Source: a virus
Taxonomy: Duplodnaviria; Heunggongvirae; Uroviricota; Caudoviricetes
DNA length: 11,484 bases
Direction: 5' to 3' (one strand)
IMG/VR virus record: IMGVR_UViG_2778261514_000009
Position 1 is the stretch's first letter. Each line of letters starts with the position of its first letter. Shown piece after piece: positions 1 to 11,325 of the stretch. The notes under the pieces are model-generated. The model was given only the letters and a program-made list of their open reading frames with translations, did no database searches and was not told where the DNA came from. The position numbers and the translations under genes were made by a program.

Positions 1-1218
1 ATGAACAAACTGAGCGATACCTTGCTAAGGAAACTTCATGGTAAGCCAGCGGAGAAAAACACGTTTTATAGTGATGGCGGAAACCTGAGCGTGAAATATT
101 TAACATCAGGGAAATTGACCTGGTATTTCACATACAGGGCCGGAACGGGAAGGGAGACACGACCCGAACGCATTAAGCTGGGAAGTTATCCTGATCTGAG
201 CCTGAAAGCAGCCAGGGAAAAAGCCGCACAGTGTCGCACATGGCTGGCTGAGGGGAAAAATCCACGTCATGAGATGAATTACACCGTACAGGAAGCGTTA
301 AAGCCCGTAACGGTTGGCGATGCGCTCACCTACTGGCTTGAGTATTACGTAAAGGAAAACCGCGTGGATTATATCGCCCTGAAAAGGCGACTTAATAATC
401 ACGTAATACAGCAGATTGGTGCTATGCCGCTGGATAAATGCGAGCTACGGCACTGGCTGGCCTGTTTTGACCAGGTGGCAAAGCGAACGCCTGTTACTGC
501 CGGATTCGTGCTACAGGCGTGCAAACAGGCGCTTAAGTTCTGCCGTAGGCGGCGCTATGCAATCAGCAACGTTCTGGACGATCTGAACGTGGCGGACGTT
601 GGGAAAAAACCGGATATAAGCGAACGTGTCTTAAGTAACAAAGAACTTGGCGAATTATTGCAGGCACTGGACAAAAAAATATTCTCCCCTTACTACGTCG
701 CGTTAATCCGCCTCCTGATTGTCTTCGGAGCCAGAACGGTAGAACTGAGGTTATCGGAGATCGGGGAGTGGGATTTTACGGAAATGCTATGGACCGTTCC
801 GAAGGAGCACAGCAAAACGAAGGTCGCAATATTCCGGCCCATACCGGAAGCGATCCTGCCGTTCGTCACGCAGCTGGTGGAGCAGAACAGGCACACGGGC
901 TTATTGCTGGGGGAAGTGAAACAGGAGGCCAGCGTATCGCAGTATGGAAGATTAGCGCACAGGAGGCTTAATCATCCTCACTGGTCACTACATGACATCC
1001 GGCGCACCTTTACAACGATGCTGAACGATTTAGGCGTGGATCCTCACGTCGTGGAGCAGCTTACAGGCCACCAGATGCCAGGAATGCAGCGAGTTTATAA
1101 TCATTCCCGTTATCTGGATGCTAAACGCAATGCGCTGGATATGTGGACGGAGCGGTTAGGGATACTGGCGGGAACACATGAAAACGTAACCACGCTACCA
1201 GTAGCCAGAAGAAAATAA
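1..1218 (+). CDS. int: Tyrosine recombinase, P4-type phage integrase (405 aa; ORF begins at window position 1)
   Basis: N-terminal arm-binding-like region (YSDGGNLSVKY...WYFTYR) and C-terminal catalytic region (HDIRRTF...LTGHQ...VYNHSRYLD) typical of P4-family integrases; followed by an AlpA gene as in P4-like and PICI elements. Confidence 0.9.
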   Translation: MNKLSDTLLRKLHGKPAEKNTFYSDGGNLSVKYLTSGKLTWYFTYRAGTGRETRPERIKLGSYPDLSLKAAREKAAQCRTWLAEGKNPRHEMNYTVQEALKPVTVGDALTYWLEYYVKENRVDYIALKRRLNNHVIQQIGAMPLDKCELRHWLACFDQVAKRTPVTAGFVLQACKQALKFCRRRRYAISNVLDDLNVADVGKKPDISERVLSNKELGELLQALDKKIFSPYYVALIRLLIVFGARTVELRLSEIGEWDFTEMLWTVPKEHSKTKVAIFRPIPEAILPFVTQLVEQNRHTGLLLGEVKQEASVSQYGRLAHRRLNHPHWSLHDIRRTFTTMLNDLGVDPHVVEQLTGHQMPGMQRVYNHSRYLDAKRNALDMWTERLGILAGTHENVTTLPVARRK

Positions 1219-1582: not shown

Positions 1583-1771
1583 GTGTTAAGCACTGATCGG
1601 TTTATACGTGAAAAAGAATGCGAAAAACTAACCGGCCTTAGCCGTACGTGTCGCTACCGCCTGGAAAAGGCCGGACAATTCCCATCACGTCGTAAACTTG
1701 GCGGTCGTTCCGTTGGCTGGTCTTTATCCGAGGTTCTGGCCTGGAAGGATAGCTGCAAGGCAGTTCATTAA
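1583..1771 (+). CDS. alpA: AlpA-family transcriptional regulator / excisionase-like HTH protein (62 aa, GTG start)
   Basis: Pattern TGLSRTCRYRLEKAGQFP...LGGRSVGWSLSEVLAW matches the AlpA (Phage_AlpA) family; SD AAGGGGG lies 6 nt upstream of GTG at 1583. Confidence 0.85.
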   Translation: MLSTDRFIREKECEKLTGLSRTCRYRLEKAGQFPSRRKLGGRSVGWSLSEVLAWKDSCKAVH

Positions 1772-2040
1772 TCACGCTGGCGGCACGCAGCCGCCACACA
1801 TCAATCATCTGAACACAGAGCTATAACCATGAAGATTGAATATACGCCAGAACGTAGGCGGGGATTCGTTCGCCCTGGTGAAACTGAAAAACAACAAAAT
1901 TGGGGTTTTTCAGGCATAACAAAAAGCGCCCAGTTACCTGAGCGCCTTTGTGAACGATTAACCTGCTGCGAAAAAATTGGATCAGTGCAGGGGAATTATA
2001 TCAACTGTGTGAAGAAGCGCCACTATTGCCGGATAACAGG

Positions 2041-2069
2041 CAAAGAAAAGGCCACCAGTCACGGTGGCC
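2041..2069 (-). terminator. Rho-independent terminator for the minus-strand two-gene unit
   Basis: On the minus strand: GGCCACC-gtgact-GGTGGCC followed by TTTTCTTTG, about 80 bp past the stop at 2149. Confidence 0.45.
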
Positions 2070-2148
2070 CTGCGACACAAATTTCGCGTTATCCCCAACG
2101 CATGAGCATCGCCAACAATGCCACATTTGCGGCTGGTGGGCAATGCTA

Positions 2149-2322
2149 TCAGTCTGGTTCAGTTCGTTGCCATACCTGCAATGAGCGCTTTTCCCTGTAC
2201 TCTTTAAGGAATTGCTCAAGGGCAAAAGCACATGGCGCGAATCTTTCTGATTCATGCTCTATCTTTCTGCGCCGTCTTTTCCGTGCCGGTGATAATGTTT
2301 TGGTCAATTCTTTATCGGTCAT
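2149..2322 (-). CDS. Small highly basic hypothetical protein (57 aa from ATG at 2322; alternative start 2337)
   Basis: ORF track 2149..2337(-); internal ATG has AGGA 8 nt upstream; contains RKRRRRK basic tract; lies 57 bp downstream of the RHH gene and upstream of the terminator. Confidence 0.35.
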   Translation of the reverse strand: MTDKELTKTLSPARKRRRRKIEHESERFAPCAFALEQFLKEYREKRSLQVWQRTEPD

Positions 2323-2379
2323 TGTGTTGTCCTGCATAGCAATGCGCCGTAATACCTCACACCACGGCGCTGATAGTGA

Positions 2380-2559
2380 TTATTCTGATTCTTTGGCCTT
2401 GCGGCGCTGGCGGCGTTTGATCTCGCCTTCAAGTGCCGAAACGATAAATTGCCCTGTACTTTCGCCATCTTCCTTTAAATTTTCTACAGCATCAGCTATT
2501 GCGTGTGGTACTCGAGCCTCAAGCTTTTTGGATTTTGCATTAACTGCTTTTGTTGCCAT
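2380..2559 (-). CDS. Ribbon-helix-helix (CopG/Arc-like) DNA-binding protein, 59 aa
   Basis: Internal ATG of track ORF 2380..2700(-) with SD GAGGAAA 6 nt upstream; sequence KKLEARVPHAIADAVENLKEDGESTGQFIVSALEGEIKRR fits the strand-helix-helix pattern; faces a divergent promoter/operator region. Confidence 0.5.
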   Translation of the reverse strand: MATKAVNAKSKKLEARVPHAIADAVENLKEDGESTGQFIVSALEGEIKRRQRRKAKESE

Positions 2560-2580
2560 ATCTGATTTCCTCGTTATTAG

Positions 2581-2662
2581 GTGGCTGACAGTATACACAC
2601 AAGAAAACGGAAAAACACTATTGACGTGGCTGACACCCGTTACTAATATAGTGGCTGACACC
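2581..2662. promoter_or_regulatory. Divergent promoter/operator region: sigma70-like TTGACG-17-TAATAT (2621-2649, + direction) overlapped by three direct repeats of GTGGCTGACA
   Basis: Repeats at 2581-2590, 2626-2635 and 2651-2660; the second overlaps the -35/spacer and the third sits at the predicted start site; located between the minus-strand RHH gene and the plus-strand operon. Confidence 0.45.
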
Positions 2663-2753
2663 TTTGTCAAGGTAATCGATGAAAAGACAAAGCCCCGCAA
2701 GTGTCGTTACCACTCGCAGGGCTTCTAACCAACAACGTAAACTAGGAGCCGTT

Positions 2754-3640: not shown

Positions 3641-3940
3641 ATGAAACTTAAATATTCTGGCTTAACTGCCAGTGGCAACACTCACCCTAAATTTACGCGC
3701 GGTGATATTTACCGCGACCAGTACGGCGGCACGGTAATGATTAAGGGCGTGGAAGAACGGCGCGTAACCTACCGCCGTGAAGGCTACGAATATGACTGCG
3801 TGATGCCTGTTTATCAGTTCCGGCGTGATTTTTCTCTGGTACAGGCAGCGCCCCGCAGTAAACCAACCAGCAGGGAGAAAGCACGCGCCAATATTCAGGA
3901 AATAAAAAAGATACTTAACGTATTCAGGGGTAAAAAATGA
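3641..3940 (+). CDS. Hypothetical protein (99 aa) immediately upstream of and overlapping the primase gene
   Basis: ATG at 3641 with GGAG upstream; its stop overlaps the primase start (ATGA at 3937-3940). Confidence 0.5.
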   Translation: MKLKYSGLTASGNTHPKFTRGDIYRDQYGGTVMIKGVEERRVTYRREGYEYDCVMPVYQFRRDFSLVQAAPRSKPTSREKARANIQEIKKILNVFRGKK

Positions 3941-5691
3941 AACTGGCACCGAACGTAAAACAGCAGTCACGCGGCATAAAACACAAAGAAACAGAAGTCA
4001 TTATTTTTGCGGGTAGTGATGCCTGGTCACACGCGAAACAATGGCAGGAACATGATGCGCGTATGGCCGGAGATAATGAGCCTCCTGTGTGGCTTGGGGA
4101 GCAGCAGCTATCCGAACTGGATAATCTGCAAATTGTGCCGGAAGGCCGAAAATCAGCACGCATATACAGGGCCGGATATCTTGCGCCAGTAATGATAAAG
4201 GCGATTGGCCAGAAGCTGGCGGCGGCAGGCGTACAGGATGCAAATTTTTACCCTGATGGTATGCACGGTCAGAAGGTGGAGAACTGGCGCGAATATCTGG
4301 CCCGTGAGCGCCAGAATCTTTCTGATGGTCTGGTCATTGAGCTTCCGGTAAAGCAAAAGGCGCAACTTTCGCAGATGGCGGACAGTGAGCGCGCGCAGCT
4401 GCTTGCCGATCGCTTTGATGGCGTTTGCGTACATCCTGAAAGTGAAATCGTTCACGTATGGCGCGGCGGGGTATGGTGTCCGGTCAGCACAATGGAACTT
4501 AGCCGCGAAATGGTGGCGATCTATTCAGAGCACAGGGCCACTTTCAGCAAGCGCGTAATCAATAACGCCGTGGAAGCGTTAAAAGTTATTGCCGAACCAA
4601 TGGGCGAGCCGTCCGGCGATTTGCTGCCGTTCGCCAATGGTGCGCTTGACCTGAAAACGGGGGAATTTTCCCCGCACACGCCGGAGAACTGGATCACCAC
4701 GCACAACGGCATTGAGTACACGCCACCAGCACCAGGGGAGAACATCCGCGATAACGCGCCAAACTTTCATAAATGGCTTGAGCACGCAGCCGGAAAAGAC
4801 CCGCGCAAGATGATGCGTATATGTGCCGCGCTGTACATGATTATGGCGAACCGGTACGACTGGCAGATGTTTATTGAGGCCACCGGAGATGGCGGGAGCG
4901 GTAAAAGTACATTCACGCACATAGCCAGCCTTCTGGCAGGGAAACAGAACACGGTAAGCGCTGAAATGACGTCGCTTGATGATGCTGGTGGACGTGCGCA
5001 GGTTGTCGGGAGTCGTCTTATCGTCCTGGCTGACCAGCCGAAATATACAGGCGAAGGAACGGGCATCAAGAAAATCACGGGCGGTGACCCCGTGGAAATT
5101 AACCCGAAATACGAAAAGCGTTTCACGGCTGTAATCAGGGCGGTGGTGCTGGCGACCAACAATAACCCGATGATATTCACCGAACGGGCCGGAGGTGTGG
5201 CACGTCGTCGCGTGATTTTCCGTTTCGACAATATCGTCAGTGAGGCCGACAAAGACAGGGAGCTACCGGAAAAGATCGCGGCTGAAATCCCTGTCATTAT
5301 CCGCCGATTGCTGGCGAACTTTACCGACCCTGAGAAGGCACGGGCTTTACTACTGGAACAGCGTGACGGTGATGAAGCTCTGGCAATAAAGCAACAGACG
5401 GATCCGGTTATTGAGTTTTGCCAGTTCCTGAATTTTCTGGAGGAAGCACGCGGCCTGATGATGGGCGGCGGTGGCGATTCAGTGAAGTACACGACCAGAA
5501 ACAGCCTTTACCGCGTCTATCTGGCGTTTATGGCGTACGCAGGCAGGAGCAAACCGCTAAACGTAAATGACTTTGGCAAGGCTATGAAGCCAGCCGCGAA
5601 AGTTTACGGACATGAATATATTACGCGGAAAGTTAAGGGAGTAACGCAGACTAACGCAATAACAACAGACGAGTGCGACGCGTTTTTATAA
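3937..5691 (+). CDS. pri: Replication initiation primase/helicase (D5_N plus SF3-type P-loop NTPase; P4-family primase C-terminal region), 584 aa
   Basis: Walker A GDGGSGKST, the downstream hydrophobic strand with acidic residue (LIVLADQP) and the characteristic ...VEINPKYEKRFTAVIRAVVLATNNNP...RRRVIFRF block; followed directly by an iteron region, as in PICI pri-rep/ori modules. Confidence 0.88.
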   Translation: MKLAPNVKQQSRGIKHKETEVIIFAGSDAWSHAKQWQEHDARMAGDNEPPVWLGEQQLSELDNLQIVPEGRKSARIYRAGYLAPVMIKAIGQKLAAAGVQDANFYPDGMHGQKVENWREYLARERQNLSDGLVIELPVKQKAQLSQMADSERAQLLADRFDGVCVHPESEIVHVWRGGVWCPVSTMELSREMVAIYSEHRATFSKRVINNAVEALKVIAEPMGEPSGDLLPFANGALDLKTGEFSPHTPENWITTHNGIEYTPPAPGENIRDNAPNFHKWLEHAAGKDPRKMMRICAALYMIMANRYDWQMFIEATGDGGSGKSTFTHIASLLAGKQNTVSAEMTSLDDAGGRAQVVGSRLIVLADQPKYTGEGTGIKKITGGDPVEINPKYEKRFTAVIRAVVLATNNNPMIFTERAGGVARRRVIFRFDNIVSEADKDRELPEKIAAEIPVIIRRLLANFTDPEKARALLLEQRDGDEALAIKQQTDPVIEFCQFLNFLEEARGLMMGGGGDSVKYTTRNSLYRVYLAFMAYAGRSKPLNVNDFGKAMKPAAKVYGHEYITRKVKGVTQTNAITTDECDAFL

Positions 5692-5935: not shown

Positions 5936-5979
5936 GAGGCACAACTCAAAACTTTTTAAACGAGGGGGTAAAAATAAAT

Positions 5980-6258
5980 ATGCACACTTCAGGGAAATTT
6001 AATAAATCACTCAAAAAACGCAGAGACAGAACAGAACCGAAATATCGCGCGTTAGACATGACAGAGCACGCTTTAAAGGTGGCAATCAGAACGATAGACC
6101 GCCACGCGGGGGAAGGATACGCGAAAGCACATCCCGACCTGATAAGCGCATTCATGACCACGACGGCGGCAAATTTTGCCACGCTGACAGAGCGGGAGAT
6201 TGCCGAAGCGGAACAGGTAACAACAATCAACGTTAAAACCGGAGAGGTGGAATCATGA
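5980..6258 (+). CDS. Hypothetical protein (92 aa)
   Basis: ATG at 5980 with GAGGGGG upstream; stop overlaps the SSB start (ATGA at 6255); no family recognised. Confidence 0.45.
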   Translation: MHTSGKFNKSLKKRRDRTEPKYRALDMTEHALKVAIRTIDRHAGEGYAKAHPDLISAFMTTTAANFATLTEREIAEAEQVTTINVKTGEVES

Positions 6259-6665
6259 CAGCACAGATAGCCGCTTACGGGCGGCTGGTGGACGACCCGC
6301 AGGTAAAACAGACCAGCAAGGGCACACCGATGACGCTGGCGCGTATGGCGGTCCCCCTTCCGTGCAGCCAGGCAGATGACGGAACGGCGACGATGTGGTT
6401 ATCCGTCCTGGCATTTGGCAGACAGGCCGAAGCACTGGAAAGGCACCGCAAGGGTGAACTCCTGAGCGTGGCGGGTAACATGCAGATCAGCCAGTGGACT
6501 GGGCAGAACGGAGAAACGCGGCAGGGTTATCAGGTTATTGCAGACAGCGTAATCAGTGCCCGTGCGGCACGTCCTGGCGGGAACAGACGCAAAACCACAG
6601 GCACACAGGGTAATCAGCCACCAGCGGGAGGCGATGACCCTTACGGTGATGATATTCCGTTCTGA
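6255..6665 (+). CDS. ssb: Single-stranded DNA-binding protein (SSB homologue, 136 aa)
   Basis: OB-fold-like N-terminus, Gly/Pro/Gln-rich linker and C-terminal tail ...DDPYGDDIPF matching the conserved SSB acidic tip (E. coli SSB ends ...DFDDDIPF); SD GGAGAGGTGG. Confidence 0.85.
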   Translation: MTAQIAAYGRLVDDPQVKQTSKGTPMTLARMAVPLPCSQADDGTATMWLSVLAFGRQAEALERHRKGELLSVAGNMQISQWTGQNGETRQGYQVIADSVISARAARPGGNRRKTTGTQGNQPPAGGDDPYGDDIPF

Positions 6666-6675
6666 GGGGGTGAGG

Positions 6676-6948
6676 ATGGTACATGACCGCATAGCGGAGG
6701 AACTCGAGGCAAAAGGCTTTTACCGGAGGGCGGCGGCACGATGGGGTGAAGTCATGCAACTGGTGGAGACAGACAAGGAACGGCATCACATCACGATGCG
6801 ACGGCTGGAATGTTCAAGGAAGGCACAGAGGGCACCGGAGCCGCCGGATAATTTCGGAGACCTGAAAAAGGCAGTCGATCGCACTTATGCCGAAATGGGT
6901 ATAGATGGTGCTGGTGATGAAATATGGCGCAATTACCAGGACAGCTAA
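6676..6948 (+). CDS. PerC-family transcriptional activator-like protein (90 aa)
   Basis: N-terminal block MVHDRIAEELEAKGFYRRAAARWGEVM resembles the PerC/Pch family signature as I recall it; SD GAGGGGG 5 nt upstream of ATG 6676; the track's longer 6556 start overlaps ssb out of frame. Confidence 0.55.
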   Translation: MVHDRIAEELEAKGFYRRAAARWGEVMQLVETDKERHHITMRRLECSRKAQRAPEPPDNFGDLKKAVDRTYAEMGIDGAGDEIWRNYQDS

Positions 6949-7318: not shown

Positions 7319-7389
7319 AGCCGGAGCAATCCGGCTTTTTTGCGCCCAAAAAAAGCCCGATAAGGTCAGAGGGTTCTTATCGGGCTTTT
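7319..7389 (+). terminator. Tandem terminators: AGCCGGA-gcaa-TCCGGCT plus T-run, then a 12-bp-stem hairpin flanked by A-run and T-run (bidirectional)
   Basis: Read directly at 7319-7341 and 7347-7389. Confidence 0.6.
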
Positions 7390-7439
7390 GCATATGAGGT
7401 TTTTGGATGCACTGGCGTTCGTGATCGGGATAATCATTT

Positions 7440-7517
7440 CATAATTTGCAACATAACTCAATATCATTGCATAAAATGCAATTCTGATTATAATCAGGAC
7501 TGGATAAACATCCAGTT
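7440..7517 (+). promoter_or_regulatory. Capsid-operon promoter region with three palindromes and a TTGCAT-16-TATAAT promoter
   Basis: TTGCATaaaATGCAA (7467-7481), perfect 14-bp palindrome CTGATTATAATCAG (7484-7497) overlapping the -10 TATAAT (7489-7494), and ACTGGATaaacATCCAGT (7500-7517). Confidence 0.4.
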
Positions 7518-7550
7518 ATGATTTTTTTAGTCGAAGAGGAATTTCTTACT

Positions 7551-7757
7551 ATGGCTGAAGAGAAAAAAGGCGGTGTTTCGGTGTACATAAGCCCCGAAAT
7601 CGTGGAGGTGCTCAAGCAGCGCCACAAAAAAAACTATGAAGCTGGCGTTGCGGCTGGACTGGATCCGCTGATGACGCCGGAGCCGTCGATAGGTTCACTT
7701 GTGCGATCTTATTTACTTGCGGCGCTTGGGATGCACAAAAATTATGGGGGCGAATAA
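7551..7757 (+). CDS. Hypothetical small protein (68 aa) coupled to the major capsid gene
   Basis: ATG 7551 with GAGGAA upstream (the track's 7518 start lacks an SD); its stop overlaps the capsid gene start (TAATG). Confidence 0.5.
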   Translation: MAEEKKGGVSVYISPEIVEVLKQRHKKNYEAGVAAGLDPLMTPEPSIGSLVRSYLLAALGMHKNYGGE

Positions 7758-8812
7758 TGGCAGTCAAAGCAATAGCACTTAACACACACCAGCTTTTCGC
7801 GTACCTGAATCGCGAGGATATTGCGGAATTTAAATTTAGTCCGCTGTTTACCGCGCTGTTTTTCCCGAACGTGGCGACATTCAACACGCAGGACATCATG
7901 TTAGATAACCTGGATATTGAAGAAGTCACTATGTCGGCGTTTTGTTCGCCTATGGTTGGCAGCCAGGTTCAGCGCGATAAAGGGTACGAAACCAGCATTA
8001 TCCGCCCTGGCTACATGAAGCCAAAACACGAAATCGATCCATTAAAAACAATAATGCGCATGGCTGGAGAAGATCCGGCACAGCTTAACGATCCTACCTA
8101 CCGCCGTATGCGCCTGATTACTGGCAACATGCGCCGCCAGATAAATGCCATTAAGGCACGCGTTGAATGGCTGGCGGTGAATGCGGTAACGACCGGAAAA
8201 AACATCATTGAGGGCGAAGGCATAGAACGCTATGAAATCGACTGGAAGATACCGGAAAAAAACATCATAGAGCAGGCCGACGGTAAAAAATGGTCTGAGC
8301 AGGATAAAGACATACACGACCCAATATATGACATTGAACTATACGCAGATCAGGCAGGTTGCCCCGCCAACGTCATGATTATGGGCGTTGATGTATGGCG
8401 CATGTTACGCAGCTTTAAAAAATTCCGTGAACTGTACGATCTCTCCCGTGGTTCAGAATCCGCCGCAGAGCTGGCATGTAAAAACCTGGGCGAAGTGGTG
8501 AGCTTTAAAGGCTATCTTGGTGATCTGGCCCTTATCGTCTATTCCGGCAAATACACTGACAGCGACGGCACAGAAAAATATTTCCTTGAGCCTGATTTGC
8601 TTGTCCTGGGCAACACCAACAATAAAGGGCTGGTGGCCTATGGTGCGATTATGGATCAGGACGCAGTAAGAACGGGGGCAACGCAAAACATGTACTACCC
8701 GAAAAACTGGATTGAGGACGGAGATCCGGCGATTGAGTACGTGCAGACGCACAGCGCACCGCAGCCGGTTCCGGCAGATATTCGCAAATTTGTTACTGTC
8801 AAAATTGCTTAA
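7757..8812 (+). CDS. Major capsid protein, lambda gpE family (351 aa)
   Basis: Alignable along its length with lambda gpE as recalled: FKFSPLF, PGYMKPKHEIDP, EDPAQLNDPTYRRMR, WSEQDKDIHDP..DIELYA, VSFKGYLGDLALIVYSGKY, LVLGNTNNKGLVAYGAIMD, YYPKNWIEDGDPAIEY..HSAP. Confidence 0.9.
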   Translation: MAVKAIALNTHQLFAYLNREDIAEFKFSPLFTALFFPNVATFNTQDIMLDNLDIEEVTMSAFCSPMVGSQVQRDKGYETSIIRPGYMKPKHEIDPLKTIMRMAGEDPAQLNDPTYRRMRLITGNMRRQINAIKARVEWLAVNAVTTGKNIIEGEGIERYEIDWKIPEKNIIEQADGKKWSEQDKDIHDPIYDIELYADQAGCPANVMIMGVDVWRMLRSFKKFRELYDLSRGSESAAELACKNLGEVVSFKGYLGDLALIVYSGKYTDSDGTEKYFLEPDLLVLGNTNNKGLVAYGAIMDQDAVRTGATQNMYYPKNWIEDGDPAIEYVQTHSAPQPVPADIRKFVTVKIA

Positions 8813-8823
8813 CGGGGGATTCT

Positions 8824-9159
8824 ATGGACACTCCATACATTGAGTTATTTGCAGGCAGTCAGCAGGTCGCCACGACGCTGGTACATTTTGCCGCTGATGC
8901 TGGCGTTATTCAGGAATTTACCCCGCTGATGCTGGCGGACAATGGCGAGTTTAAGCCGTGGGATGGTCAGGAATCTGGCAAGGCTGTTTATCTGACTTCG
9001 TATCCTGTGGACACGTCAAAGCAGAAATCAGCACAGTGTTACAAGACGGGGATATTCAATATTGCCGCCGTTAACTGGCCTGAGAGCGTCGACACCGATG
9101 CGAAAAAATGCGCCGCCTTTGCGGGTTCCGGCGTATCCGTTCAGCCGCTGGCCCGATAA
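8824..9159 (+). CDS. Head decoration protein, lambda gpD-like (111 aa)
   Basis: Core matches lambda gpD as recalled (TPLMLADNGEFKPWDG vs TPLMLDTSSRKLVAWDG; CYKTGIFNIAAVNWPE vs FYKSGTFRYEDVLWPE; KKCAAFAGSGVSV vs KKRTAFAGTAISIV); SD GGGGG. Confidence 0.75.
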   Translation: MDTPYIELFAGSQQVATTLVHFAADAGVIQEFTPLMLADNGEFKPWDGQESGKAVYLTSYPVDTSKQKSAQCYKTGIFNIAAVNWPESVDTDAKKCAAFAGSGVSVQPLAR

Positions 9160-9171
9160 GCAGGGGGAACG

Positions 9172-9585
9172 ATGGCAACGAATGAAAGCATCATGACGCT
9201 ACCGCTGGCGAGTAAATTTAAAGCCGAAGCGCGGGCAATGGCTGACAGAGGTTTATCAACCTATGAGGCCGTATATCAACTAAACAAACTGGAAGAGCAG
9301 GACAAGCCGCGCGCTGATGCGATTATGGCGCTTCATGAGCATAAAGACTATCAGCCGCTGTTACGTGCAATGGCAAACGTGCCATGTATTAGCGTCGATA
9401 ATGCTCGTGAAATCCTGAACATGACCATAGAGCAGGAGCGCCCAAAGGTTGCACCAGAGCTTACCGCAGCCTTTGAAAACTTTATGGACATGCACAGCCC
9501 GCAAGCCGTATCAGCTGGCATGGCATACGATGGCAGAAACCAGGGCGATGACGGCGACATCGATCGCATACTGAAAACCATCTGA
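9172..9585 (+). CDS. Hypothetical protein (137 aa), last gene of the capsid operon
   Basis: SD AGGGGGAA 4 nt upstream; followed by a terminator; no family recognised. Confidence 0.5.
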   Translation: MATNESIMTLPLASKFKAEARAMADRGLSTYEAVYQLNKLEEQDKPRADAIMALHEHKDYQPLLRAMANVPCISVDNAREILNMTIEQERPKVAPELTAAFENFMDMHSPQAVSAGMAYDGRNQGDDGDIDRILKTI

Positions 9586-9589
9586 GACA

Positions 9590-9614
9590 AGGCCGGAGAA
9601 ATCCGGCTTTTTTT
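9590..9614 (+). terminator. Rho-independent terminator (GCCGGA-gaaa-TCCGGC plus T7) abutting cosQ
   Basis: Read directly; same hairpin family as the terminators at 6955 and 7319. Confidence 0.6.
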
Positions 9615-9790
9615 ACGGGTCCTTTCCGGCATATGGACCCGTTACGGGGCGGCGACCTCGCGGTTTTTCGCTATTTATGAGCCTTTTCAGGGGGGGGGTG
9701 GTGGTTTTGTTGTTTGCTCTATCTTTATGAATGAAAAGGGAAAGATGCAAACAATACACCAACCTGAAGCAGTAATTAAGTTGGTGTATT
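9615..9790 (+). other. Lambda-type cos site (copy A): cosQ-like ACGGGTCCTTTCCGG, cosN with 12-nt cohesive end GGGCGGCGACCT (9647-9658), then a divergent cosB-like region
   Basis: ACGGGTCCTTTCCGG-N11-GTTACGGGGCGGCGACCTCGCGGTTTTTCGCTATTTATGA matches the phage lambda cos junction as recalled, with the same cosQ-cosN spacing; downstream sequence departs from lambda cosB and carries a G9 run and the inverted repeat ATACACCAAC...GTTGGTGTAT. Confidence 0.7.
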
Positions 9791-9791
9791 A

Positions 9792-10334
9792 ATGAAATCG
9801 CACCTGATGAACAAAAAAAACATGGCGAAAAGCTGCCGTGTAAGTGCGACAGCGTTCGACAAGTGGGGAGTGACTCCCGTTGAACGTAAAGGCCGTGAGG
9901 CGTTTTACGATGTTGCCAGCGTGATAGACAATAGGGTTAACAATGCAATTAGCCAGCTTACAAACGACAAAGGCGATATTGATGATGATGAACTCTTACG
10001 AGTCAGGATCAGATTACTGACAGCACAGGCGGAGGCGCAGGAACTTAAAAACGAGCGCGATCGCGGTGACGTGATTGATACTGAGTTTTGCCTGTACGCG
10101 CTTTCAAAGCTGGCGAGTCAGATTTCATCAATCATGGACAGCCTCCCGCTTACTATGCAAAGGAGCTTCCCACAGATTACCCACGCCATGCTGGATAGGC
10201 TTAAAAGGGAAGTGGTTAAAGCCTGTAATGCCAGTGCCAGAGTTGCCGACAACCTCCCACAGATACTGGCTGATTACTTGAAAGAAACAACCGGAAACGT
10301 ACCGGAAAAGTTGCTACAGAAGAAAGGCGAGTAA
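9792..10334 (+). CDS. terS: Terminase small subunit, lambda Nu1 family (180 aa; start possibly at 9807)
   Basis: C-terminal two-thirds aligns with lambda Nu1 as recalled (RLLTAQAEAQELKNERD / LTRAQADAQELKNARD; FCLYALSKLASQISSIMDSLPL / FCTFVLSRIAGEIASILDGLPL; LKREVVKACN / LKRDIIKAMN); N-terminus NKKN... parallels Nu1 MEVNKKQ... HTH region; lies directly downstream of cos as in lambda. Confidence 0.8.
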   Translation: MKSHLMNKKNMAKSCRVSATAFDKWGVTPVERKGREAFYDVASVIDNRVNNAISQLTNDKGDIDDDELLRVRIRLLTAQAEAQELKNERDRGDVIDTEFCLYALSKLASQISSIMDSLPLTMQRSFPQITHAMLDRLKREVVKACNASARVADNLPQILADYLKETTGNVPEKLLQKKGE

Positions 10335-10339
10335 CAGAC

Positions 10340-10556
10340 GCGCAATTATTGAACAAAACTGAGAAACGACATGAAAGCGTCATAAATCGCCATTTTAGAT
10401 GATTACCGTGTCGTTTCTTTTTATTGTGTATCTATTTAAAAACAAATAGTTATGTTCGAGAAGTACCGACATGCTTTTTCCAGAAAAATTTTCATAAACA
10501 GATAAAAACCGCGAGGTCGCCGCCCCGTAACGGGCCATAATTCCAGGAAGGACCCG
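10340..10556 (-). other. Second, inverted cos module (copy B): cosQ-like, cosN (GGGCGGCGACCT on minus strand at 10514-10525) and a lambda-like cosB with I1-like and R-like elements
   Basis: Reverse complement of 10500-10556 reads CGGGTCCTTCCTGGAATTATGGCCCGTTACGGGGCGGCGACCTCGCGGTTTTTATCTGTTTATGAAAATTTTTCTGG, close to copy A and to the lambda left end; further along, CGAACATAACTATTTGTTTTTAAATA resembles the lambda I1 region; inverted CGTTTCT elements at 10363-10372 and 10409-10418. Confidence 0.6.
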
Positions 10557-10589: not shown

Positions 10590-10877
10590 ATGACAGAAGC
10601 CGAACTACTGGGATTAATCCGCCGCGTTACCGGAATCAGCCAGCAGCATGACGAACAGGCCACGCAGCCGGACAGCGTGACCGCCGAAAATTACGCGCGT
10701 GTGGTTGCTGAGGTGATGCGCCGTGATGGTATCCAGCTTAATGATGTGGATATGCGCAACATAGGATCCGCGTTCTTGAAATGCTGGCCTACAATCGCCG
10801 CGTGGCACTGTATCGGGAAACGGAGAAAATTACGTACCACTGGAAGAAGCCGGAGCGGTTACGGCGTTAACGAGTAG
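10590..10877 (+). CDS. Hypothetical protein (95 aa), weakly supported
   Basis: ORF with a G-rich SD-like sequence upstream; no family recognised; could be non-coding. Confidence 0.3.
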   Translation: MTEAELLGLIRRVTGISQQHDEQATQPDSVTAENYARVVAEVMRRDGIQLNDVDMRNIGSAFLKCWPTIAAWHCIGKRRKLRTTGRSRSGYGVNE

Positions 10878-10921: not shown

Positions 10922-11325
10922 AAAAGACGGTTTAACCGTTAATTAAAAATTGACGGGATTTTGTGCTTTCCGGACGACGTGACCAACGTCATTTTTTAGC
11001 GAAAAGTTCTGATTAAGGTCATTGTCTGAATGGTCATAATGACCACTCCTACAAAACAGGTAAAGCCCACCAGCCTGATTAACAGTTAACCGGAAAAAAA
11101 TCCGGTAGCCCCGTTATGGGGATCCCCATATCAACATTAACGCCCCTCATGAATTAGCGCGCTTCCCCCTGGAAAGATGACCCGCCTGTATATTTCTTGT
11201 GTCTATTTGTTCCACGTTGTTTCATACAGTGCACCGAACGGTGTAGTCACTGGTGTAGTCATTTTGCGATTTATGGCACTTTTTGTAGTGAAAATTATTT
11301 AATTAAATCAATGCGTTAAGTGAAA

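Follow-up and report, generated by a model that had tools for sequence, protein, structure and literature searches.

Why an island that encodes neither a portal, nor a protease, nor a large terminase (TerL) should keep genes for a lambda-like shell is the question raised by the DNA analysed here, a stretch of 11,484 nucleotides (the window). Its positions 7551-9585 carry four co-oriented genes, which encode a 68-aa protein, a coat protein, a decoration protein and a 137-aa protein, all of them at the places given in a preliminary description of the sequence. The puzzle lies in the fact that the coat, decoration and scaffold set is intact and under selection, and belongs to a lineage apart from sequenced phages, with no phenotype in published assays.

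These four genes are almost certainly the capsid cassette in the late region of a classical Gram-negative PICI of the EcCICFT073 family, located in tqsA of a STEC strain. This identification follows from the position of the island, which splits tqsA, from the int, alpA, primase, SSB and PerC genes found upstream of the cassette, from the cassette order of EcCICFT073 and the match to PDB 3BQW presented below, and from the published descriptions. The island matches the source genome, E. coli STEC17-183, at 100%; there, its ~11.5 kb lie between two tqsA fragments, flanked by the core genes pntAB on one side and ydgV-mdtJI on the other. The integrase gene occupies one end and is followed by a co-oriented alpA-type regulator, as in other classical Gram-negative PICIs, and the only ORFs of at least 300 aa in the window are those of the integrase, the D5/P4-type primase and the coat protein (Table 1). 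The small size (in the ~10-20 kb class), the specific chromosomal att site, the lack of tail, lysis, portal and TerL genes, and the combination of a helper-type cos site with a packaging-specificity gene, in this case terS, are likewise those of classical PICIs, although helper induction and high-frequency transfer have been shown experimentally for EcCICFT073 only (PMC6092414). The absence of portal, protease and TerL, already pointed out for the window, holds for the whole element and for its flanks in STEC17-183 (ORF list, Pfam and PHROG). Head-tail adaptor or connector and HNH genes were also absent from the island and flanks with the same resources, and the remaining ORFs gave no other head, tail or lysis matches in Pfam or PHROG.

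Table 1. Features of the island in window coordinates, with the evidence for each assignment.
Feature	Position	Strand	Evidence or remarks
int	1-1218		PHROG 1, E 9e-71
alpA-like gene	1583-1771		PHROG 2790 'excisionase and transcriptional regulator', E 2.5e-17
Primase, D5/P4-type	3937-5691		D5_N, DUF5906 and Pox_D5 domains (Pfam); PHROG 864, E 5e-176
Two tandem terminator-like hairpins	7319..7390	+	Close the upstream replication/perC transcription unit
Putative promoter/operator region of the cassette	7440..7523	+	Direct sequence reading
68-aa satellite-specific protein	7551..7757	+	PHROG 3255, unknown function
Major capsid protein, lambda gpE family	7757..8812	+	351 aa; Pfam PF03864 (Phage_cap_E), E 9.6e-50
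Head decoration protein, lambda gpD / phage 21 SHP family	8824..9159	+	111 aa; Pfam PF02924 (HDPD), E 1.3e-17
Candidate Nu3-type scaffold homolog, 137 aa	9172..9585	+	PHROG 53 C-terminal end; profile-profile comparison
Terminator-like hairpin with T-run, closes the cassette	9590..9616	+	GGCCGGAGAAATCCGGC then TTTTTTT, read directly
cosN, exact lambda 12-base cohesive-end sequence	9647..9658	+	Exact match to GGGCGGCGACCT
TerS, Nu1-type small terminase	9792..10334	+	180 aa; Pfam Phage_Nu1, E 1.2e-23; PHROG 57, E 1.7e-52
Second exact cosN 12-mer	10514..10525	-	Inverted, downstream of terS

The coat protein is a full-length member of the gpE family, covering positions 15-328 of the 329 in the Phage_cap_E profile. 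In PHROG it falls in family 29, 'major head protein' (E 4e-108). Compared with lambda gpE, it shows 44% identity across 328 residues, which is essentially the full length, and in the PDB it matches both 3BQW, from CFT073 (E 4e-228, ~95% identical), and the lambda coat structure 7VI9 (E 1e-82). The decoration protein belongs to PHROG 49 (E 2.6e-27) and matches the phage 21 protein SHP (PDB 1TD0, E 1.5e-13) and gpD (E 3.5e-9). Neither protein is truncated in comparison with lambda E and D, and the HMM searches bore out their initial description as gpE-like and gpD-like. No NCBIfam family was obtained for any cassette protein, and none of them matched the Sid and Psu families in Pfam or PHROG; the decoration protein is of the lambda D family, and the cassette is not a P4-type Sid/Psu remodelling system.

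The other two proteins had been described as unknown, which stands for the 68-aa protein and no longer for the 137-aa one. The stop codon of the 68-aa gene overlaps the start of the coat gene (TAATG). Its product had no tblastn match in 50,697 phage records, so that this additional gene has no phage counterpart there, and a word-indexed homolog search found homologs in E. coli and Salmonella only. The AF2 model (mean pLDDT 72.5) presents two helices (residues 15-34 and 47-58) after an extended N-terminus, with no Foldseek match to the PDB at E <=0.001. The Foldseek matches below significance include ribbon-helix-helix proteins (TraM, YiiF), so that a DNA-binding role for this protein is only a hunch.

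With respect to the 137-aa protein, profile comparison identifies it as a homolog of the C-terminal region of the lambda Nu3 scaffold, an assignment that is new here. It consists of a repeat unit and the C-terminal F-x-x-F-M-x-x-H-S-P tail of lambdoid gpC/Nu3, and its PHROG match is to the C-terminal end of family 53, 'head maturation protease' (E 1.7e-10); this is the sole protease-related match, and it falls in the non-catalytic, C-terminal scaffold part. When used in tblastn, it led to the 3' end of a gpC-like gene of phage 204576, located just upstream of a D-like gene, and exhaustive phmmer searches retrieved the Nu3-like proteins P0041 and P0042 (E 2e-5 and 5e-5, respectively). The link to Nu3 is a transitive one, through P0041 (E 2e-16 against lambda Nu3), which requires an intermediate sequence and profile comparison: hhalign against an alignment that includes lambda Nu3 gave a probability of 96.7% (E 3.8e-10), and BLASTP run directly on lambda gpC/Nu3 gave no significant match (E 0.3). 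Searching the PDB sequences with this protein gave no matches, and its homologs in the word-indexed search were close E. coli and Salmonella relatives only. The label 'phage head-tail connector protein', which some NCBI records carry for this family, was not adopted, since no model supports it. The Salmonella relative has a 79-aa gene after its decoration gene. By eye its product could be taken as similar to the Nu3 tail, but BLAST gave no similarity either to Nu3 or to the 137-aa protein; thus, the scaffold is not universally conserved. Taking into account this candidate scaffold homolog, the earlier suggestion that the scaffold is supplied by the helper is probably wrong.

As judged from its predicted signals, the cassette is an operon of its own, consisting of a promoter, the four genes and a terminator, and followed by a lambda-type cos and a Nu1-type TerS. 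In the upstream hairpins, the terminator scan found AGCCGGAGCAATCCGGCT and then a T-run at 7319-7336, and a perfect 14-nt inverted repeat (7351-7364/7376-7389) precedes TTTT. The promoter/operator function of the next block is inferred from a predicted promoter, TTGCAT-16 nt-TATAAT (7467-7494), overlapped by three palindromes (ATTGCAT/ATGCAAT, CTGATTA/TAATCAG and ACTGGAT/ATCCAGT). The block is nearly invariant in six E. coli PICIs and one Salmonella PICI, the coat protein of the latter being only 68% identical. The hairpin that closes the cassette was recognised by direct reading and is not listed by the terminator scan. The first cosN, with flanking bases that read CGTTACGG...CGCGGTTTTTCGCTATTTATGA, lies 134 bp upstream of terS, a layout like that of lambda cosN-cosB-Nu1. 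TerS is 35% identical to lambda Nu1 over its full length, and its best phage match is that of N15 (46%); a PDB search with it yielded chance matches only.

This architecture is already known: the layout, described in 2018, is that of the textbook late region in PICIs of E. coli. The prototype EcCICFT073 (Fillol-Salom et al. 2018 ISME J; 2019 Mol Cell) shares the common plan of int, alpA, primase, SSB, PerC and late region, and has the same cassette order at 92% nucleotide identity; its coat protein is c1499, whose structure is 3BQW. Like the island, it has two lambda-type cosN sites, reported to be functional (PMC6092414), and no portal, protease or TerL. Three differences were found. The gene after the cassette encodes TerS (180 aa) here and RppA (144 aa) in EcCICFT073; integration is in tqsA here and next to phoQ in CFT073; and the 68-aa gene is a different allele (dN 0.20 between the window and CFT073). 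Genes of Rpp type, of 144-146 aa, occupy the TerS position in CFT073, EcPF5 and VTB96933v, and RppA was considered as a truncated relative of TerS and rejected, there being no detectable similarity between the two. Since 21 of the 29 reference PICIs from Gram-negative bacteria have capsid genes (PMC10111431), and EcCICFT073 has the same cassette, the proposal of a distinct architecture could not be maintained.

The comparison with other systems places the island more precisely. The capsid-forming PICIs, or cf-PICIs (for example EcCIEDL933; Alqurainy et al. 2022/2023), have, like it, int, alpA and replication genes, together with capsid proteins and a TerS of their own whose lineages are separate from the phage homologs. 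However, their head and packaging set is complete (major capsid protein, protease, portal, head-tail connectors, HNH, TerS and TerL), and they make their own small capsids, whereas the island has only the coat, decoration, scaffold homolog and TerS, and its close relative was packaged as phage-sized DNA; the island is not, therefore, a cf-PICI. With lambda it shares homologs of E (44%), Nu1 (35%), the D family and the C-terminal region of Nu3, together with the exact cosN 12-mer upstream of terS, but its genes follow a permuted order (E, D, Nu3-like, cos, Nu1), A, W, B, C, FI and FII are missing, and the scaffold homolog is a free-standing 137-aa gene, while Nu3 is nested in the lambda protease gene. 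SaPIbov5, another cos-packaged satellite, also carries a homolog of the HK97-fold coat protein of its helper, Ccm. This protein leads to small capsids and blocks the helper, whereas the EcCICFT073 ortholog of the island coat does neither with lambda; the available part of the published account of Ccm describes no decoration or scaffold partner.

The cassette is found at >=80% coverage in 592 of 5,426 complete E. coli genomes (~11%), O157:H7 included. All four ORFs are intact in 8/8 sampled islands, whose replication modules and integration sites differ, and the genes are annotated as intact across the 28 full-length matches listed. The cassette is under purifying selection, with dN/dS values, obtained from eight mosaic sequences only and with dS up to 0.23-0.37, of 0.08 (decoration), 0.11 (coat), 0.29 (scaffold homolog) and 0.30 (68 aa), the decoration protein thus being the most strongly constrained of the four. 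No phage coat protein more than 48% identical to that of the island was found in 50,697 phage records, while that of the Salmonella PICI is 68% identical; this difference points to a satellite-specific coat lineage that is long-standing and not recent debris. The conservation of gene order and promoter extends as far as Salmonella.

The experimental information comes from EcCICFT073. [quoted passage not shown] Lysates of lambda with EcCICFT073 contained packaged DNA of phage size only, and size redirection was excluded by the authors (PMC6092414). A tetA insertion, which makes the island larger, lowered its transfer in comparison with the size-neutral cat replacement (PMC6092414), a difference consistent with the cos-to-cos packaging of multimers in full heads.

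The reading preferred here, held tentatively and with the balance somewhat against it, is that the cassette is a cognate shell-building set that works on helper portals, redundant with the helper and dispensable in laboratory assays. The coat, decoration and scaffold proteins would form a co-evolved set; after helper induction, shells of island coat would assemble around portal and protease supplied by the helper, with normal lambda size (T=7) and not a small one. The island TerS would guide helper TerL to the island cos, and TerL would load some four island genomes into each shell (4 x 11.5 kb = 46 kb), whose expanded form the island decoration protein would then stabilise. The island coat could in this way give rise to phage-sized heads redundant with those of helper coat. 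Its 44% identity to gpE counts against the mechanism, since a coat this divergent might neither nucleate on a helper portal nor be processed by the helper protease. In lambda, gpD binds expanded, DNA-filled shells only, and Nu3 acts in shell assembly only. The strong selection on decoration and scaffold argues for island shells that are indeed assembled and filled, the only situation in which these functions make sense, and phage-sized packaging is also what T=7 island shells would be expected to give. The fact that the coat and decoration orthologs can be deleted with no change in transfer speaks against this mechanism, and, together with the c1499::cat results, means that island shells are not needed. 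According to the proposal, no deletion phenotype appears in laboratory transfer assays because island shells are redundant with helper capsids, and their benefit would be only conditional, for instance when the helper coat is limiting, incompatible or disabled.

An improbable alternative is that the cassette serves interference or defence, its proteins poisoning or mis-assembling the capsids of certain lambdoid phages other than lambda and phi80, to the protection of the host population or the advantage of the island. The tight organisation of its own promoter, in which three palindromes are conserved, is what might be expected of a regulated, potentially toxic function; the cassette is widespread and selected, and PICIs commonly carry interference functions downstream of ori. 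However, when the post-ori genes of EcCICFT073 were expressed singly, only c1503 (rppA) reduced lambda plaques, and its deletion fully restored plaquing with the cassette still present (PMC6739421). A simple poison subunit, moreover, would hardly account for the keeping of a full cognate decoration protein and scaffold. The phages tested were lambda, phi80 and HK97 only.

Still less probable is size redirection, put forward in the preliminary description as small capsids made from the island coat, by which this protein, alone or mixed with helper coat, would produce small one-genome capsids that exclude the helper genome. The idea has precedents in SaPIbov5 Ccm and in PmCI172, which makes small heads and has a coat homolog (PMC6092414). 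By calculation, a T=3 lambda-type shell would also hold roughly the ~11.5 kb of the island, and the cassette has its dedicated scaffold homolog. Against it, the ~95%-identical ortholog accompanied phage-sized DNA only, the lower transfer of the tetA-enlarged island fits multimers in full heads, and interference was not relieved by loss of c1499 or c1500 (PMC6092414), nor does any cassette gene expressed alone inhibit lambda (PMC6739421). Finally, that the cassette is a non-functional or weakly selected leftover of a captured helper head-gene cluster would agree with the lack of phenotype (PMC6092414, PMC6739421) and with the proposal of the Williams group that PICIs capture and then lose late genes in cycles (PMC10111431), but it is very unlikely in view of the intact ORFs, the dN/dS of 0.08-0.30 at the dS values given above, the gene order and promoter kept out to Salmonella, and a divergence from every known phage (<=48% identity) that implies long retention.

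Returning to the cognate shell-building set, the identity of the scaffold and the constraint on the decoration protein, the strongest in the cassette, sharpen the puzzle into a testable hypothesis. In its more far-reaching form, which is unlikely as it stands, classical PICIs would be hidden 'shell-forming' satellites that build T=7 shells of their own on stolen helper portals, with the 68-aa protein perhaps as a regulator or adaptor. If this were true, many PICI transducing particles would be chimeric, with an island shell and the portal, terminase and tail of the helper, and earlier assays would have been blind to island shells because DNA size is unchanged and helper shells substitute for them. 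Islands of this kind would then represent an intermediate grade between capsid-stealing PICIs and cf-PICIs. Should island shells indeed assemble and fill with DNA, the view of how PICI particles are built would change, which would matter for the engineering of PICI-based delivery vehicles.

The island has been located in the chromosome of E. coli STEC17-183 (NZ_CP075652.1), which the window matches at 100% identity. Within this locus and its 6 kb flanks, it splits tqsA, the gene for an AI-2 transporter, into two fragments. Core genes stand at both sides (pntAB left, ydgV-mdtJI right), and thus the flanks, in which portal or protease genes were to be sought, are chromosomal. The element is about 11.5 kb long, the window covering all but about 190 bp of its left end, and all the main island genes are reported as co-oriented.

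Features of the island (window coordinates)
Feature	Position	Remarks
Integrase	1-1218	
alpA-type regulator	1583-1771	
Small ORFs, several	between alpA-type regulator and primase in gene list	
D5/P4-type primase	3937-5691	
SSB	6255-6665	
PerC-family regulator	6676-6948	Pfam PF06069, E 1.2e-42
Terminator-like hairpins, two	7319-7390	upstream of cassette
Palindrome block	7440-7523	
-10 hexamer TATAAT	7489-7494	perfect
Capsid cassette, four genes	7551-9585 (+)	68, 351, 111 and 137 aa
cosN 12-mer GGGCGGCGACCT	9647-9658 (+)	exact; 134 bp upstream of terS
Nu1-family small terminase (TerS)	9792-10334	180 aa
cosN 12-mer, second copy	10514-10525 (-)	exact, inverted
ORF 3' of terS	10590-10877	95 aa, PHROG 1561

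The host of this PICI, with its PerC-family activator, is a Shiga-toxin-producing strain, and the identical PerC protein accession is found in the annotated PICIs of O157:H7 FRIK2455 and FORC_028; the gene may be a virulence-regulating cargo. At 1829-2728 (+), PGAP annotates a 299-aa "hypothetical protein" without a PHROG match, while the C-terminal 59 residues of an ORF at 2380-2700 (-) match PHROG 949 (E 1.8e-22); the former call is probably spurious, the real gene being short and divergently transcribed. In the source genome, the 95-aa ORF carries a frameshift annotation, and sister islands carry an intact 93-aa gene in its slot. Just within both island ends, one upstream of int and one near attR, lie copies of a 23-bp direct repeat, CGGTGTAGTCACTGGTGTAGTCA, itself a doubled motif GGTGTAGTCA (5941-5963 and 17239-17261 of the source-genome locus, the latter being window 11239-11261), which could together be arm-type sites of the integrase.

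The four cassette ORFs lie exactly where the preliminary description had placed them, and its expectation of E-like coat and D-like decoration genes was borne out by domain searches. The 351-aa product (PF03864, E 9.6e-50; PHROG 29, E 4e-108; 44% identity to lambda gpE over 328 residues) is a major capsid protein of the lambda E family, and the 111-aa product (PF02924, E 1.3e-17; PDB 1TD0, E 1.5e-13) is a decoration protein of the lambda D/SHP family. The claimed lack of portal, protease and large terminase also holds for the whole element, in which ORF scans and domain and PHROG searches found none of them; the only window ORFs of at least 300 aa encode the integrase, the primase and the coat protein, and no other island ORF matched head, tail or lysis families.

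The 137-aa protein belongs to a PHROGs family of unknown function, although its residues 46-119 align to the extreme C-terminus of PHROG 53, a head-maturation-protease family (E 1.7e-10). Its sole phage tblastn match is the 3' end of a gpC-like gene of Escherichia phage 204576, directly upstream of D-like and E-like genes. In this record (CP025907.1, 850-3500 of the extracted locus), the three genes are split into many short frames, which look like sequencing or assembly frameshifts and make it a poor basis for comparing proteins. When 1.84 billion representatives were searched exhaustively with phmmer, only nine proteins came up. Two of them, P0041 (whole-library E 2e-5) and P0042 (5e-5), consist of RIMxLxEAxGRExLAxxLAxxPGMTxxxAxxLL repeats and, after these, an FxQFMQxxSP tail. 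P0041 matches both the C-terminal part of lambda Nu3 (E 2e-16) and the 137-aa protein (E 6e-11), and profile-profile comparison joins the 137-aa and Nu3-like families with 96.7% probability (E 3.8e-10). Direct BLAST against lambda gpC was not significant, so the relationship is remote. Judged by these comparisons, the 137-aa protein is a homolog of the Nu3-type scaffold; the island would thus encode coat, decoration and scaffold, and the earlier suggestion of a helper-supplied scaffold is probably wrong.

The 68-aa gene, whose stop codon is overlapped by the coat gene start, has no homologs in 50,697 phage records, its relatives being confined to E. coli and Salmonella. Its AlphaFold model (pLDDT 72.5, moderate), with an extended N-terminus and two helices, gave no significant fold match.

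This architecture had been put forward as new, but it is already known. The coat protein matches PDB 3BQW (E 4e-228), a "putative capsid protein of prophage" from E. coli CFT073, and the CFT073 region beside phoQ is the right end of EcCICFT073, the prototype Gram-negative PICI, with the order PerC, 68 aa, major capsid, head decoration, 137 aa, 144 aa and 93 aa. The cassette is the same, in the same order and with 92% nucleotide identity to the window, and its capsid (c1499) and head decoration (c1500) genes have been described by Fillol-Salom et al. 2018 (PMC6092414). The island agrees with classical Gram-negative PICIs in its terminal integrase and co-oriented alpA-type gene, in small size, chromosomal insertion site and lack of tail, lysis, portal and TerL genes, and in its helper-type cos sites with a packaging-specificity gene. 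In contrast to capsid-forming PICIs, it has no portal, protease, connectors, HNH or TerL, and does not belong among them.

Upstream of the cassette, the hairpins are followed by an AT-rich stretch in which TTGCAT, 16 nt and TATAAT form a predicted promoter, overlapped by three perfect or near-perfect palindromes (ATTGCAT-AAA-ATGCAAT, CTGATTA-TAATCAG and ACTGGAT-AAAC-ATCCAGT). This block is almost unchanged across six E. coli PICIs and persists in a Salmonella PICI with as little as 68% identity in the coat protein; thus, the palindromes are probably operator sites of some regulator. A hairpin with a T-run lies directly 3' of the 137-aa gene. The two cosN copies flank terS and share a longer context, CGGGGCGGCGACCTCGCGGTTTTT, resembling EcCICFT073, for which two functional cos sites have been reported (PMC6092414).

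The main difference from EcCICFT073 is in the slot 3' of the cassette, occupied either by a 180-aa Nu1-type TerS (this island, O157:H7, FORC_028, P15-385 and strain 9) or by a 144-146-aa Rpp-type protein (CFT073, L002 2660-3094; EcPF5 and VTB96933v, with sister-island loci L009 4698-5132 and L010 4698-5138), RppA in CFT073. The two proteins are unrelated, without sequence similarity, and they seem to be exchanged, as alternative cassettes for packaging specificity, among islands that are nearly identical in other respects.

The cassette is present in 592 of 5,426 complete E. coli genomes, O157:H7 included (at least 80% coverage; matches of 90-100% identity). Six further islands differ in replication genes (primase or RepA helicase), integration site and downstream gene (TerS or Rpp); in every one of them the four ORFs are intact and their order is unchanged. 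Mean dN/dS (Nei-Gojobori, eight sequences) is 0.11 for coat, 0.08 for decoration, 0.29 for the 137-aa and 0.30 for the 68-aa gene. Among phages, coat protein identity stays at or below 48% (lambda, 21, N15, phi80 and Gifsy-1 at 43-48%) and TerS identity at or below 46%. Taking into account these distances, the conservation and the selection, cassette coat and TerS are long-standing satellite lineages, not recent helper debris; such conservation contradicts the reading of the cassette as a decaying remnant, which is highly improbable. The start of the related Salmonella PICI (L012 1-587 and 702-1922) directly follows a gene fragment in which gpJ tail-fibre domains are recognised (FNIII-A_GpJ, Phage-tail_3, Ig_J), which suggests a helper-embedded element integrated in a prophage tail gene.

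A scaffold is useful for shell assembly only, and in lambda, proteins of the gpD type attach to shells only once these are expanded and filled with DNA. Given the strong purifying selection on a cognate coat, decoration and scaffold trio, it can tentatively be proposed that island shells assemble and are filled with DNA. They would need the portal, protease and TerL of the helper, and their expected size is that of lambda shells (T=7). Four copies of the island add up to 46 kb, within the packaging window of lambda.

For the cassette, gene identities, operon layout and conservation are established here, and its EcCICFT073 ortholog is dispensable in published laboratory assays. Deletion of c1499 or c1500 neither restored lambda plaquing nor affected island transfer, and lambda and phi80 efficiently transferred a derivative carrying cat in place of c1499 (PMC6092414); redundancy with helper shells would mask such a phenotype. 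When each post-ori gene was expressed singly, only c1503 (rppA) inhibited lambda, and its deletion fully restored plaquing (PMC6739421). Poisoning of the capsids of further lambdoid phages is unlikely; for lambda, phi80 and HK97, this reading is contradicted. [quoted passage not shown] Filling of T=7 shells with four genomes would agree with this DNA size, and also with the lower transfer of a tetA-enlarged island than of the size-neutral cat derivative (PMC6092414).

In the literature collection searched, no later work on the function of the cassette genes was found. The remaining interest is in why the cassette is conserved, a puzzle that the scaffold assignment sharpens.
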